64,000 nucleotides of DNA, taken from positions 17,738-81,737 of the forward strand of contig JAVBLL010000002.1 of NCBI GenBank assembly GCA_031553555.1. Reading direction: 5' to 3'. Below the pieces are notes generated by a model. That model had not been told where the DNA came from and searched no databases. It worked only from the letters and a program-made list of their open reading frames with translations. Each line of letters starts with the position of its first letter. Position 1 is the stretch's first letter. Of the stretch, positions 4,911 to 9,401 are shown piece by piece. Origin of the DNA: Bacilli bacterium. GTDB lineage: Bacteria > Bacillota_I > Bacilli_A > ML615J-28 > CAG-698. A program made the translations under genes and the position numbers.

Positions 4911-6212
4911 ATGAGAACTGTTGATATTATTACTAAAAAAAGACAAGGTTATGCATTGACAAATGAGGAAATCCATTTTGTAATTGCTGGATATGTAAAT
5001 GGAGATATTCCTGACTATCAAATGAGTGCTTTATTAATGACCATTTGTTTTAATGGATTAAATAGCGAAGAACAAGTAGCATTAACCAAAGAAATGCTAG
5101 AAAGCGGAGAACAAATAGACCTATCACCGGTTAAGGGGATTTGTGTGGATAAACACTCAACAGGTGGGGTTGGAGATAAAACAACGCTGGTAGTGGCACC
5201 AATACTAGCTGCTTGTGGTTTAAAAGTAGCGAAGATGAGCGGAAGAGGACTTGGACATACTGGTGGAACTTTAGATAAATTGGAATCAATTCCTGGATTT
5301 TCTATCAATATAAAGAGTGAAGATTTTTTTAAGCAAGTAGAAGAGATCTCATTAGCTGTCATTGGACAAACAGCCAACATTACCCCAGCAGATAAAAAAT
5401 TATATGCACTTCGTGATGTTACTGGAACAGTTGATTCCGTTGGGCTTATTGCTGGATCAATAATGTCTAAAAAACTTGCCAGTGGTGCTAAATCAATTTT
5501 ACTAGATGTAAAAGTTGGTGATGGAGCTTTTATGAAAACCTTAGATGATGCTTACGTTTTAGCAAACGCTATGGTTGATATTGGTAAATCGTACAATCGT
5601 GATATGGTAGCAATACTGACCAATATGGATGAGCCACTTGGAAATATGGTTGGTAATAGTATAGAAGTAATAGAAGCCATTGAAACTTTAAAAGGCAAAG
5701 GGCCAAAAACATTTGAATTATTTTGCTATGAGTTAGTTAGTGAATTATTATTAGCAACAAACACAGTAAATAATAAAGAAGATGCTTTTAAATTGATTGA
5801 AGAAAAGATAAATAATGGTATTGCTTTAGAAAAATTAAAACAAATGATTTCATATCAACATGGAGATACAAATGTTTTAGATGACTATTCATTATTTCCT
5901 CAAGCTAAATACAAGGTTCTAGTAAAATCTACTAAAGTCGGTTATGTTAAAAGTCTTAAAGCTTTAGAAATAGGCTTAAGTGCAATGATGCTAGGAGCTG
6001 GCAGGGAAAGTAAAGATGATAAAATCGATTTGGCAGTGGGTGTAGAGGTTCTAAAAAAAGTTGGATCCTATATTAATACAGATGAACCAATTGCTATCCT
6101 TTATTCCAATGGACGTAACCAACAAAATGCATATGATAAAGTCTTAAATGCATTTGAAATTGTTGATGAAATAATTGAACCACGTCCTATCGTTTTAGGT
6201 ATTGTGAAATAA
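4911..6212 (+). CDS. pdp: pyrimidine-nucleoside (thymidine) phosphorylase
   Basis: 433 aa with KHSTGGVGDKTTL, SGRGLGHTGGTLDKLE and the C-terminal alpha/beta domain. Extended -10 TGgTATAAT upstream. Confidence 0.85.
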   Translation: MRTVDIITKKRQGYALTNEEIHFVIAGYVNGDIPDYQMSALLMTICFNGLNSEEQVALTKEMLESGEQIDLSPVKGICVDKHSTGGVGDKTTLVVAPILAACGLKVAKMSGRGLGHTGGTLDKLESIPGFSINIKSEDFFKQVEEISLAVIGQTANITPADKKLYALRDVTGTVDSVGLIAGSIMSKKLASGAKSILLDVKVGDGAFMKTLDDAYVLANAMVDIGKSYNRDMVAILTNMDEPLGNMVGNSIEVIEAIETLKGKGPKTFELFCYELVSELLLATNTVNNKEDAFKLIEEKINNGIALEKLKQMISYQHGDTNVLDDYSLFPQAKYKVLVKSTKVGYVKSLKALEIGLSAMMLGAGRESKDDKIDLAVGVEVLKKVGSYINTDEPIAILYSNGRNQQNAYDKVLNAFEIVDEIIEPRPIVLGIVK

Positions 6213-6266
6213 TAAATTTTACTTGCTTTTTTATGAATTATATAGTAAAATAAGTAAGTATAAATT

Positions 6267-6351
6267 GCCACTGTGTTGAAACAGGTAGACAAACTTGACT
6301 CAAAATCAAGCGCTGAAAGGCGTGCCGGTTCGAATCCGGCCAGTGGCACCA
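6267..6351 (+). tRNA. tRNA-Leu (anticodon CAA), class II with long variable arm, CCA encoded
   Basis: Cloverleaf read by hand. Acceptor GCCACTG/CAGTGGC, 3-bp D stem, anticodon stem CTTGA/TCAAG with loop CTCAAAA (anticodon CAA), 13-nt variable arm, T-arm GCCGG-TTCGAAT-CCGGC, discriminator A then CCA. Confidence 0.9.
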
Positions 6352-6363
6352 TAAGATGATTAT

Positions 6364-6397
6364 AGGTCTGACACAGTTGTGTCAGACCTATTTTATT
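6364..6397 (+). terminator. intrinsic terminator after tRNA-Leu
   Basis: 12-bp stem aggtctgacaca/tgtgtcagacct with a 2-nt loop, followed by attttatttg. Confidence 0.8.
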
Positions 6398-6619
6398 TGC
6401 ATTTTTAGCCTAAAATAACCGAATTCCCAGAGCTTTCGTTTTTTGCATCATTATCTATATTCTTAGGGCTGATTCGTCGAAAGTCAAAGGATCTTTGTTA
6501 GTTTTTTACCTTATTATAAATCTTAAGCAAGCGACAAATTGTTTCTAAAATAAAATCCATCCTCTCTTTTTATCAAGAAAAAACAATCTATTTAAATTCC
6601 TTCAAAACTATAATTATTT

Positions 6620-7792
6620 TTAGTTATTTGGTAATTTCCCACAATATTCAAATATTAAGTCAAGTTTACTATCAATATTTGCCTTCGCAATTTCGGTAAG
6701 ACGCAAATGTGATTTCTGGTGATGTACTACGTACGGGTTCTTGCCTGAATCTTGTGTCGCTGCATAAAAATATCGTCCTAAGTCGTCAATCATTGCTTTA
6801 ACTAATATCCCATTTCCTATTGTAGTATCAATATGTTTAAAATCACGCACTTTGCAGTAGTATGAATATTTATCCATCCAAGGATATTCTAATTTCATTG
6901 TTTGGTCAGCTTCTTGAGCAGTGCTATCGAATATACCACAACCAACAATGTGTTGAGTGGGCTTGCCTCTTTCATCTATGCTCACAACAGCCATGTAGAA
7001 CTGTTCTCCTAACCTAATGCTCGGCATGCCTTTTTTAAATGGAAATGCAGTAATCATTTGGCCTTGCCAAATCGTAGGCTTATATCTCTCTGATGGTTTT
7101 GATCTACTATCAGCAGATTCCTCAAATTTTAACCAAATTCTATTTATAGAATGTGATAATGGCATTAATGATTGCGGTGCAGTATTTTGAGCTGATGTAG
7201 AAATAGGAGAACTATGCACTTTAACGGTTGACGGTGGCTCTGCACCCCATTTCTCAGTAGGCTCATATGGTTCTTCAAAGGGCTTTTCATTTTGAACTTT
7301 ATTTTTAACCTTGTCTATCATTTCGTCTATTCGGGATGCCAAGATCTCAAAACTTGGATTTGTTATTCGATATAAATTCTGAAAGAATTCAATAAGCTCA
7401 CGAACCAACTGTGGATCTTCCTGAATAAACAATGATAATTCATTATTATAATGAAAACCACCAGATGTAAAATTAGCAGAACCAACGATTGCAGAAGTAT
7501 CATCAAAAATGTAAAGTTTTGTATGAAGTTTTTTTAATGCATACAAACCGATATTTGCATTTTTTAAATCTCTCAGTCCTTCAATACAACTTACTCCCTT
7601 GTAAAAATCACTATCATAAAAGCGTGTGATTACATCAACTTGTATAGACTGATTTAACAGTTTCGTTTTACATAATAAATCTGTCATCTCCTTTCCCAAG
7701 AAAGGAGATATGATTTTTATACTGCTATTTACAGAAGCAAAAAGATTCGTTATGATTTGAAAATGATTATTTGAAACAACAGAAATATACAT
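6620..7792 (-). CDS. PLD/HKD-superfamily nuclease-like protein with uncharacterised ~200 aa C-terminal domain
   Basis: 390 aa. One HxK(x4)D motif plus a GSxN motif (residues 90-109: HTKLYIFDDTSAIVGSANFT) after an ~85 aa N-terminal region. An acidic/proline linker follows, then an aromatic-rich C-terminal domain with no motif I recognise. Own promoter and RBS (gaggtg 8 nt before ATG). Confidence 0.6.
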   Translation of the reverse strand: MYISVVSNNHFQIITNLFASVNSSIKIISPFLGKEMTDLLCKTKLLNQSIQVDVITRFYDSDFYKGVSCIEGLRDLKNANIGLYALKKLHTKLYIFDDTSAIVGSANFTSGGFHYNNELSLFIQEDPQLVRELIEFFQNLYRITNPSFEILASRIDEMIDKVKNKVQNEKPFEEPYEPTEKWGAEPPSTVKVHSSPISTSAQNTAPQSLMPLSHSINRIWLKFEESADSRSKPSERYKPTIWQGQMITAFPFKKGMPSIRLGEQFYMAVVSIDERGKPTQHIVGCGIFDSTAQEADQTMKLEYPWMDKYSYYCKVRDFKHIDTTIGNGILVKAMIDDLGRYFYAATQDSGKNPYVVHHQKSHLRLTEIAKANIDSKLDLIFEYCGKLPNN

Positions 7793-7810
7793 CTATATGC
7801 ACCTCGACAA

Positions 7811-7839
7811 AATTGTATCAAAAAACTATACTTTTGTCA
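7811..7839 (-). promoter_or_regulatory. sigma-A-type promoter for the PLD-nuclease gene
   Basis: On the minus strand: TTGACA - 17 nt - TACAAT, about 20 nt upstream of the RBS/ATG at 7792. Confidence 0.6.
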
Positions 7840-7987
7840 AATTAATAGCATAGTTTTCATCACTCTCACTTTTTCTTTCCTCAAATCCCTTGAGATTTTT
7901 AATTGCCTTGTCTATTAACCGCAGAGACTTGACGCTACTAATTTTATATCAACGGTTTTAATTGTAATAATTGAATTTAAAACATAG

Positions 7988-8272
7988 TTTGGATATATTA
8001 GAAGTGATATTTTGTTGATAGCATATACAGAACGTTTTTTAAAGTCCTTCGATAAACTATCTAAAAATGAACAAGAGTTGTTTAAAAATAAAATCGATAT
8101 ATTTATTAGAAATAACCTTCACCCATTTTTAAAAACTAGCAAAATTTAAGGGAATAAAGATTAATATGAGTCTATCATTGATATGGATATAAGGATTATT
8201 TGGTTTTATGAAAATGATGAGATAATTGTATTAATTGATATTGGACATCATAATATTTTAAATAGGTATTAG
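7988..8272 (+). pseudogene. RelE/ParE-superfamily type II toxin relic; two in-frame TAA stops, no cognate antitoxin
   Basis: Single frame reads ...IAYTERFLKSFDKLSKNEQELFKNKIDIFIRNNLHPFLKTSKI*GNKD*YESIIDMDIRIIWFYENDEIIVLIDIGHHNILNRY*. TAA codons at 8147 and 8162 interrupt an otherwise typical RelE/YoeB-like sequence (HPFL..K, YRIIY-like, IGHR-like C-terminus). No ATG start. Confidence 0.6.
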
Positions 8273-8326
8273 AATATCAGAAAAAGTAGGTATACCAATA
8301 TGATTTTTGAGGATTTCAAGACAACT

Positions 8327-8358
8327 ACATTACATTAATTGATGTAATGTTTTTAAAA
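8327..8358 (+). terminator. intrinsic terminator closing the island before lplA
   Basis: 9-bp perfect stem acattacat/atgtaatgt with a 6-nt loop, followed by ttttaaaatttt. Confidence 0.6.
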
Positions 8359-8408
8359 TTTTCAAAATGTATTTAATAATTTGTAAAAATATGGTATGAT
8401 ATATACAT

Positions 8409-9401
8409 ATGAAAAATATTGATTTGAGATGCCTAGGAAAACAGGAAATATCATTTTATTTGGGGCTTGAAGAATATCTGCTAAGGCACCTGGAGGAAGA
8501 TATTTTTTTCTTATGGAATTTAAATCCCTCTGTTGTTATTGGTAGAAATCAGCTTATTGATGGAGAAGTTAATACTTCATATGCTGAAGAAAAAGGTGTC
8601 AAAATTTATAGACGCCCAAGTGGCGGAGGAGCAATTTATGCTGATAGTGGTTGCTTTATGTTTACTTTTATTACAAAAGAGAAAGATAAAGAGTTAATTT
8701 TTAAAAACTATTTAGGGATGATTATAAACGCTCTCAAGGAACTTGGAATAGATGCTTATTTTTCAGGTCGAAATGATATGTTGGTAAATGGTAAAAAATT
8801 TTCTGGTAATGCCATGTATACAAACGAGCATGGATCTGTTCTACATGGAACTTTTTTATATGATACTGATTTAATTGAACTAGTCAATATAATTACGCCA
8901 GATAATCAAAAGTTGCTTACAAAGGGTATTAAGAGTGTAAATGAGAGAGTTATAAATTTGAAAGAGTTTTTAAATCTTAGTAAGGAAGAATTAATGAATT
9001 ATCTTATTGATAATATCAGCGAAACAAAACAATTATTAACTAATGATGAATTAACAGAAATTAATTTAATTAAGAAGAAATTTGATTCCTATGAATGGGT
9101 TTATGGAAAAAACCCTAAGTATACTTTTAAAAATGATAAAAGATTTTTATGGGGTCAATTAATAGTTTTTGTTGATATTAAAAATGATATTGTTCAAGAA
9201 ATGAATTTAAAAGGTGATTTTTTTGCTATTAAGGAAATAGATAATTTTTGTAATAAATTTAGAAAAGTTCCTTTTGTTAGAGAATCTTTTCAGGAAATAA
9301 CTAATAAATATAATGTCAATGAGTATATTATGAATTGTTCAAACGAGGATTTTAATTTAATGTTTTTTGGAGGAAAAGATGAAGAAAACAATACTTTATG
9401 A
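8409..9401 (+). CDS. lplA: lipoate--protein ligase A
   Basis: N-terminus ...WNLNPSVVIGRNQ...YRRPSGGGAIYAD...KKFSGNA..., typical LplA. An extended -10 (TGgTATGAT, 8392-8400) ends 8 nt before the ATG and there is no SD, so probably leaderless. Confidence 0.85.
   Translation: MKNIDLRCLGKQEISFYLGLEEYLLRHLEEDIFFLWNLNPSVVIGRNQLIDGEVNTSYAEEKGVKIYRRPSGGGAIYADSGCFMFTFITKEKDKELIFKNYLGMIINALKELGIDAYFSGRNDMLVNGKKFSGNAMYTNEHGSVLHGTFLYDTDLIELVNIITPDNQKLLTKGIKSVNERVINLKEFLNLSKEELMNYLIDNISETKQLLTNDELTEINLIKKKFDSYEWVYGKNPKYTFKNDKRFLWGQLIVFVDIKNDIVQEMNLKGDFFAIKEIDNFCNKFRKVPFVRESFQEITNKYNVNEYIMNCSNEDFNLMFFGGKDEENNTL

Follow-up and report, generated by a model that had tools for sequence, protein, structure and literature searches.

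A solitary PLD nuclease gene with a predicted EVE-like reader domain, a candidate modification-dependent restriction enzyme, in an uncultured Bacilli genome

Results

The window analysed here is a 64,000-nucleotide stretch of the genome of a Bacilli bacterium (GTDB lineage Bacillota_I, Bacilli_A, ML615J-28, CAG-698; assembly GCA_031553555.1, contig JAVBLL010000002.1, positions 17,738 to 81,737 of the forward strand), and the subject is a solitary gene that lies in it between a tRNA-Leu gene and lplA. The gene (coding sequence 6620..7792, minus strand, in window positions) encodes a protein of 390 amino acids in which a single-HKD nuclease of the phospholipase D (PLD) fold is joined by a flexible linker to a C-terminal domain with a predicted EVE-like fold. 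We propose that this protein probably functions as a one-gene, type IV-like, modification-dependent anti-phage restriction enzyme, with the PLD domain as its nuclease and the EVE-like domain as its reader.

As an earlier, sequence-only reading of the window had reported, the open reading frame (ORF) is intact over 390 codons on the minus strand, running from an ATG start to a stop codon at 6620-6622 (ORF list), and an identical protein is present in public data (P0001). The promoter and strong ribosome-binding site (RBS) described in that reading were also found. A consensus scan placed a promoter-like site, TTGACA-17-TACAAT with a TG before the -10 element, at 7812..7840 (minus strand), where it agrees with the consensus at 11 of 12 positions and is the top scorer of the region scanned, and a Shine-Dalgarno sequence, GAGGTG, can be read directly off the sequence at 7800..7805 (minus strand), 7 nt from the ATG on its upstream side. 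The -10 element lies very near the RBS, so that the transcript of the PLD gene would begin at or just before it.

The 3′ end of the PLD gene lies beside a gene for tRNA-Leu(CAA) (6267..6351, plus strand; ARAGORN, and 56.2 bits against the Rfam tRNA model), and an Rfam scan of 5800-8800 returned this tRNA only. The tRNA gene is followed by its terminator (6362..6391, plus strand), a perfect hairpin with 14-bp arms and a T-run that was found both in the terminator scan and as inverted repeat I7 (100% complementary), and which is the sole terminator-like structure between the convergent tRNA-Leu and PLD genes. On the other side lies a pseudogene for a RelE/YafQ/ParE-type toxin (8012..8272, plus strand), an 86-codon frame with two in-frame TAA stops, whose alignments with Pfam YafQ_toxin (E=1.3e-4) and ParE_toxin (E=1.7e-3) run from end to end but stay below the gathering score in each case; no recognisable antitoxin ORF was found upstream of it. 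The PLD gene and the toxin pseudogene make up the coding content of the 2-kb stretch from tRNA-Leu to lplA, about 880 bp of which are non-coding. Past the tRNA gene lie pst/phoU/phoPR, an MgtC-family gene, a histidine phosphatase gene and pdp, and the opposite end of the stretch is bordered by lplA-gcvT-gcvH-gcvPA-gcvPB-lpd. The PLD gene is encoded on the strand opposite to pdp, tRNA-Leu(CAA) and lplA, as had been claimed, and the earlier statement that it has no methyltransferase, helicase or ATPase partner nearby likewise holds over about 6 kb in each direction, where the genes are housekeeping genes.

Conservation at this locus across the clade, of the kind a housekeeping gene would show, was looked for and was not seen. 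None of the three nearest relatives with an LplA, themselves distant (about 50-53% LplA identity), has the PLD gene upstream of lplA. The nearest LplA homologs (50-55% identity), labelled as coming from Bacilli or Mycoplasmatota metagenome-assembled genomes, keep the lplA-gcv-lpd operon with a different gene upstream of it in each case and no PLD gene, and synteny upstream of lplA is not conserved among them. The PLD gene is therefore an accessory gene and not a conserved housekeeping gene, and it stands alone in the short non-core islet that separates tRNA-Leu from lplA. The further suggestion that this islet is a tRNA-adjacent insertion fared less evenly: the mildly atypical GC content of the gene at third codon positions (0.256, z=+2.15 against 45 window genes), the toxin pseudogene and the absence of the gene from relatives are in keeping with it, whereas a search for an att-like or direct repeat of the tRNA end bounding the insertion gave only short chance repeats. 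An insertion beside the tRNA gene is thus plausible, although not delimited. The public assembly also carries a gene call of 83 amino acids at 6101-6352 of the window (minus strand; 1859-2110 of locus L001), which is almost certainly spurious because it runs antisense over the 3′ end of pdp and the entire tRNA-Leu gene.

The N-terminal domain of the protein (residues 1-168 including its C-terminal helices; 7289..7792, minus strand) is a single-HKD nuclease of the PLD fold. Translation gives exactly the catalytic motif that the sequence-only reading had described at residues 90-109 (7466..7525, minus strand), HTKLYIFDDTSAIVGSANFT, which follows the pattern HxK(x4)D(x6)GSxN with the layout H90-T-K92-LYIF-D97-DTSAIV-G104-S105-A-N107; it is complete, and it is the only HKD motif in the protein. 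The expectation that the N-terminal half would match the PLD, Nuc or BfiI type was borne out by Pfam, in which PLDc_2 (residues 17-140, 55.3 bits against a cut-off of 27), the N-terminal PLD domain of RE_NgoFVII (residues 17-140, 33.9 bits against 23.8) and PLDc (24.0 bits against 21.9) all exceed their cut-offs, and by structural comparison, in which the fold is nearest to nucleases and not to lipid enzymes, the top match being the DNA restriction enzyme SauUSI. Among full-length members of the family (83 sequences), H90 (99%), K92 (100%), D97 (82%), S105 (100%) and N107 (100%) are conserved, as are T109, N116 and E118 (98-100%), and the window protein retains every one of these eight residues. 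PLD nucleases are metal-independent enzymes that act through a covalent phospho-histidine intermediate.

A PLD fold is also found in lipid enzymes, and a housekeeping phospholipase or an enzyme of the cardiolipin synthase type was accordingly sought, a lipid-binding or cardiolipin-synthase-like domain having been named beforehand as a sign against a defence role. Weak NCBIfam matches to cardiolipin synthases (E 1e-3 to 5e-2) do occur, but they cover the HKD motif only, and all cls models score far below their cut-offs (12.6-17.9 bits against 281-787). The protein has one HKD motif instead of two, its nearest folds are nucleases, its C-terminal domain has the fold of a nucleic-acid reader, the gene is not conserved at the locus in relatives, and the family as a whole is rare and patchy. 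A lipid PLD is effectively refuted by the sub-threshold cls scores, the single HKD motif and the EVE-like C-terminal fold, and we consider it hardly credible.

The nuclease is followed by a linker rich in Pro, Glu and Ser, EKPFEEPYEPTEKWGAEPPSTVKVHSSPISTSAQNTAPQSLMPLSHSI (residues 169-216; 7145..7288, minus strand; from the translation), in agreement with the Glu/Pro-rich linker noted earlier. In the full-length model of the protein (predicted local distance difference test, pLDDT, 82.5) the linker is modelled as disordered, with pLDDT below 50 at residues 171-178 and 189-216. Within this otherwise variable stretch Gly183-Ala184 (7241-7246) is conserved, G183 being present in 95% of the 83 members, and is modelled as a short strand. 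Through this pair the linker may attach to one or other domain, which could matter for autoinhibition.

The C-terminal domain (residues 217-390; 6623..7144, minus strand) is predicted to be an EVE-like member of the PUA superfamily and a putative sensor of modified bases. The sequence-only reading had been unable to assign it to a family, and at the level of sequence this remains so: ten family members gave no match to Pfam over this domain even at E≤10, a PDB sequence search with the C-terminal family profile found nothing, and the NCBIfam matches of the window protein are restricted to the HKD region, with none over the C-terminal domain. Its fold, in contrast, can be recognised. Modelled alone from an alignment of ten sequences, the domain reaches a pLDDT of 91.5 and a predicted template modelling score (pTM) of 0.88, and its structural matches are EVE, ASCH and YTH domains, with the top scores going to EVE proteins that include the DNA-bound THYN1 and VcaM4I. 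Foldseek, a method independent of the other structural comparison of the domain, ranks PH1033, MJECL36, THYN1 and VcaM4I first. The comparison with EVE, SRA and PUA-like folds proposed in the sequence-only reading thus points to EVE, and because a confident model matches EVE proteins structurally, the domain is assigned, on this predicted structure, to the EVE-like members of the PUA superfamily at the level of fold. The motifs WLKF, IVGRG, (Y)DWM..YP.YC and H.Q.AHLRLT are kept in all homologs, and the residues of this domain that the family conserves most, K222, F223, R230, I282, G284 and W305, are all retained in the window protein; Y312 and Y343 are likewise conserved in the family.

This fold also bears on the alternative of a BfiI-like enzyme put forward in the sequence-only reading, namely a sequence-specific type IIS restriction enzyme of the BfiI/NgoAVII kind that cuts unmodified DNA. 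The domain is EVE-like, and no B3-like DNA-binding pseudobarrel is among the fold matches listed for it. An orphan enzyme of that type would be self-toxic, yet the window gene has no methyltransferase in its vicinity, nor does the family have one as a conserved partner. With the wrong C-terminal fold and no methyltransferase, this candidate was rejected and is very improbable.

The family to which the protein belongs is thinly spread. A word-indexed search of 5.8 billion proteins yielded 13 relatives, the closest 51% identical, while an exhaustive search of 1.84 billion proteins with the C-terminal profile yielded 390 representative clusters (50% identity) at E≤1e-3. The PLD and EVE-like domains occur together and in the same order in 106 of the 167 sequences collected, and many of the remainder are fragments. 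A scan of reference genomes, which used full-length alignment, found a full-length homolog in about 40 of them, mostly Bacillota with a few Bacteroidota/Ignavibacteria and Desulfobacterales. No relatives were found in viral contigs or GenBank phages. Homologs also occur on plasmids of the Bacillus cereus group and of Agrobacterium/Rhizobium, where they are annotated merely as ‘phospholipase D family protein’. The full-length homologs common on the Agrobacterium/Rhizobium plasmids are distant (23-25% identity over 93% of the protein); they are carried by Agrobacterium fabrum plasmid pAtAG67 (L092) and by 57 other Agrobacterium/Rhizobium plasmid records, and on pAtAG67 the homolog comes after an Abi family gene and amid RES-family toxin genes.

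Genes of defence systems recur beside the homologs. Across 39 genome loci there is no conserved neighbour, the largest neighbour cluster being present at six of them, and the recurrent neighbours are type I HsdR/HsdM/HsdS, MmeI-like type IIG enzymes, BREX BrxL, SIR2 and serine recombinases. Large neighbours include Wadjet JetC and DRT UG24, additional enzymes of types I and IIG, and a protein whose matches are Lamassu LmuB-like. Similarly, metagenomic homologs adjoin a type I restriction-modification (R-M) system with DndB, or Mrr with integrases, while plasmid copies adjoin HEPN with IS200/TnpB, or Abi and RES genes. The methyltransferases present at some of these loci are parts of complete type I, type IIG or BREX systems. 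Defence neighbours that change from locus to locus, with no fixed partner, are what one would expect of an autonomous defence gene that travels among defence islands.

Several members depart from the two-domain architecture. In P0165 (L089, 10001-11707) the PLD and EVE-like domains are followed by a canonical Pfam EVE domain, giving two readers in tandem. A second architecture is found in proteins of 280-290 amino acids (P0061, P0064, P0067, P0068, P0077, P0109 and P0113), in which a short Tudor/SH3-like N-terminus with the motif ‘HKxFGxGxV’ and a Lys/Glu-rich linker precede the same EVE-like domain; these proteins have no nuclease domain and no Pfam match. A sub-branch of 500-560 amino acids (P0003-P0006 and P0022-P0025) carries an extra domain of 130-170 amino acids after the EVE-like domain, which is DUF4268 in P0005 and has no Pfam match in the others.

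The locus of P0165 brings in the possibility that the window protein is an accessory nuclease of the DrmC kind, with no specificity of its own, recruited by a partner such as the DISARM DrmAB helicase and left here as an orphan after loss of its system. P0165 is preceded by genes for a DUF1156-methyltransferase and an SNF2 helicase, in an arrangement like that of DISARM class 1, and adjoins a GmrSD_N/HNH type IV gene. The PADLOC ‘DrmC’ model PDLC02599 aligns end to end with the window protein (E=7.8e-24) and matches P0165 over both domains (1.5e-82). P0165 is likely to be the source of this model, and its DISARM class 1-like locus probably explains the ‘DrmC’ label. DrmC is itself dispensable and frequently absent from DISARM operons (PMC9142583), which would suit an orphan. 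Nevertheless, the window gene has neither DrmA nor DrmB nearby, and annotation of the recurrent neighbour clusters and of nine large neighbours from the 39 genome loci likewise turned up neither. Canonical DrmC consists of a four-helix bundle and a PLD domain with no reader domain (PMC12458937), the NCBIfam model DISARM_DrmC_I scores 31.3 bits against a cut-off of 133 and covers the HKD region only, and a protein that carries its own sensor needs no recruitment. An accessory nuclease of this kind is therefore unlikely. Canonical DISARM DrmC itself was rejected, there being no drmA/drmB (DUF1998) operon, a PLD domain that starts the protein directly and an NCBIfam score far below cut-off.

Discussion

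The PLD nuclease, the EVE-like fold, the lack of a methyltransferase partner and the defence contexts of the homologs together give in silico support to the single-gene, modification-dependent (type IV-like) function suggested by the sequence-only reading, and restriction of this type probably describes the protein best. By comparison with Nuc, BfiI, NgoAVII and SauUSI, two copies of the PLD domain would pair to form one metal-independent active site. The EVE-like domain, held on a flexible tether of about 48 residues, would flip a modified base into a hydrophobic pocket, by analogy with VcaM4I and THYN1, and binding to modified foreign DNA, for example the modified cytosines of a phage, would position or release the nuclease for cutting. 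Until then the sensor and linker may restrain the nuclease, as the behaviour of VcaM4I suggests. Host DNA lacking the modification would escape cleavage, and no methyltransferase partner would be needed for that reason. The target may more readily be a modified cytosine or a hypermodified base than N6-methyladenine (m6A), a tentative preference that follows from the repeated occurrence of homologs next to m6A-forming type I and type IIG systems.

Characterised enzymes offer precedents for the separate parts of this mechanism. The EVE domain of VcaM4I flips 5-methylcytosine (5mC) or 5-hydroxymethylcytosine (5hmC) into a pocket formed by residues P24, W82 and Y130, and VcaM4I without its EVE domain and linker is a toxic, non-specific nuclease (PMC7897488). 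VcaM4I and TspA15I are 5mC/5hmC-dependent enzymes of the EVE-HNH type, from which the window protein differs in that its nuclease is a PLD rather than an HNH domain and should be metal-independent, in its reversed domain order with the sensor at the C-terminus, and in a sequence identity of only about 15%. In the END nucleases, whose PLD N-terminal domain carries an exchangeable sensor at the C-terminus, a single gene has been shown by experiment to restrict hypermodified phages (PMC12191111). They resemble the window protein in having a BfiI/NgoAVII-like PLD domain at the N-terminus, a specificity-setting sensor at the C-terminus and no methyltransferase, but their sensor is an inactivated EndoIII (EndoIII/OGG-like) and not an EVE-like domain.

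Further PLD-containing systems also bear comparison. SauUSI, a type IV enzyme in which the PLD domain is combined with a helicase and a DUF3427 sensor, is ATP-dependent and uses another sensor, whereas the window protein has no ATPase. BfiI and NgoAVII pair a B3-like C-terminal domain with a methyltransferase, in contrast to the EVE-like domain and the lack of a cognate methyltransferase here. DISARM DrmC is likewise a PLD nuclease of defence islands, and PADLOC files one branch of the window family under its name; however, canonical DrmC has about 230-260 amino acids, with a four-helix bundle and a PLD domain and no reader, the window locus has no DrmA/DrmB, and PDLC02599, though labelled DrmC, represents the PLD and EVE-like architecture. 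DrmC does not co-purify with DrmAB (PMC9142583, PMC12458937).

Several observations weigh against modification-dependent restriction of DNA by this protein. None of ten family members matches Pfam EVE (PF01878) at E≤10, and hhalign gives a probability of 0.15% when the family alignment of 121 sequences is compared with the canonical EVE domain of P0165; judged by its sequence, the C-terminal domain therefore lies outside PF01878 as currently defined, and its proposed homology to EVE rests on predicted structure. Its base-binding pocket is putative, the promoter-like site and RBS of the gene are matches to consensus only, and the literature searched contained no experimentally characterised PLD-EVE enzyme. 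Relatives of the domain in the EVE, YTH and ASCH families often bind RNA, and some PLD nucleases, such as Zucchini, cut RNA. The window protein also departs from the family consensus at N80 (Gly in 84%), F136 (Tyr in 86%), M256 (Pro in 81%) and C285 (Arg in 72%), and the PLD gene adjoins a decayed gene, so that a loss of activity is possible.

These points lend themselves to two other interpretations. In the first, the protein would be directed at RNA, the EVE-like domain reading a modified RNA base and the PLD domain cutting tRNA or phage transcripts as a toxin or defence effector. However, the C-terminal domain matches EVE proteins best, the DNA-bound THYN1 and VcaM4I among them; the PLD domain finds its closest structural counterpart in the DNA enzyme SauUSI and, in Pfam, matches that of the NgoFVII restriction enzyme; and the homologs are most commonly flanked by DNA-targeting R-M systems. 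We give an RNA nuclease little credence. In the second, the protein would be an inactive or decaying remnant that arrived with an eroding small mobile islet, as might be expected from the stops in the neighbouring toxin gene, the large non-coding share of the islet, the four departures from consensus and a predicted transcript with almost no leader before the RBS. Against this, the 390-codon frame is intact, all the catalytic residues as well as the six conserved residues of the C-terminal domain (K222 to W305) are kept, both domains are modelled with high confidence, and a strong promoter-like site and RBS stand at the start of the gene. A remnant is thus also improbable, and we continue to favour a modification-dependent DNA restriction enzyme.

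A bolder version of that proposal concerns what the reader recognises. The EVE-like family, distinct and missed by sequence models, might read something other than 5mC or 5hmC, such as a hypermodified base or a modified nucleotide in RNA. The PLD enzyme would then be the first representative of a class of single-chain, modification-dependent nucleases that are metal-independent and have a new specificity. Hints of another specificity come from the occurrence of the EVE-like domain in tandem with a canonical EVE domain (P0165) and on the nuclease-free Tudor-like proteins, though we regard this extension as doubtful.

The architecture as such is not new. Bell et al. (2020, PMC7641849) predicted that PLDc-EVE fusions act as type IV restriction endonucleases, and EVE has been listed among the C-terminal sensors found on PLD N-terminal domains (Yee et al. 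2025, PMC12191111). The combination of PLD and EVE domains is consequently of an already known, predicted kind, of which the window protein is a sequence-divergent member, and with a full-length PADLOC model in existence under the DrmC label, its novelty was overrated in the sequence-only reading. The window protein shares with the predicted fusions a single-HKD PLD domain, a reader of the EVE/PUA type for modified bases, a single-gene organisation and defence contexts; it differs in that its reader is missed by Pfam EVE and by profile comparison and forms a family of its own of about 390 clusters.

That family marks two gaps in current annotation: Pfam misses the EVE-like reader domain of these clusters, and its stand-alone members will probably appear as ‘DrmC’ in PADLOC or as ‘phospholipase D family protein’ in NCBI annotation. 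Because PLD nucleases need no metal ions, a modification-dependent enzyme of this kind could be a useful reagent for mapping modified bases, although its practical value would be modest. If the proposed function is correct, the gene would add one more single-gene enzyme to type IV restriction, and the small, AT-rich genome of this uncultured, Bacilli/Mycoplasmatota-like bacterium would be defended by it against phages with modified DNA.

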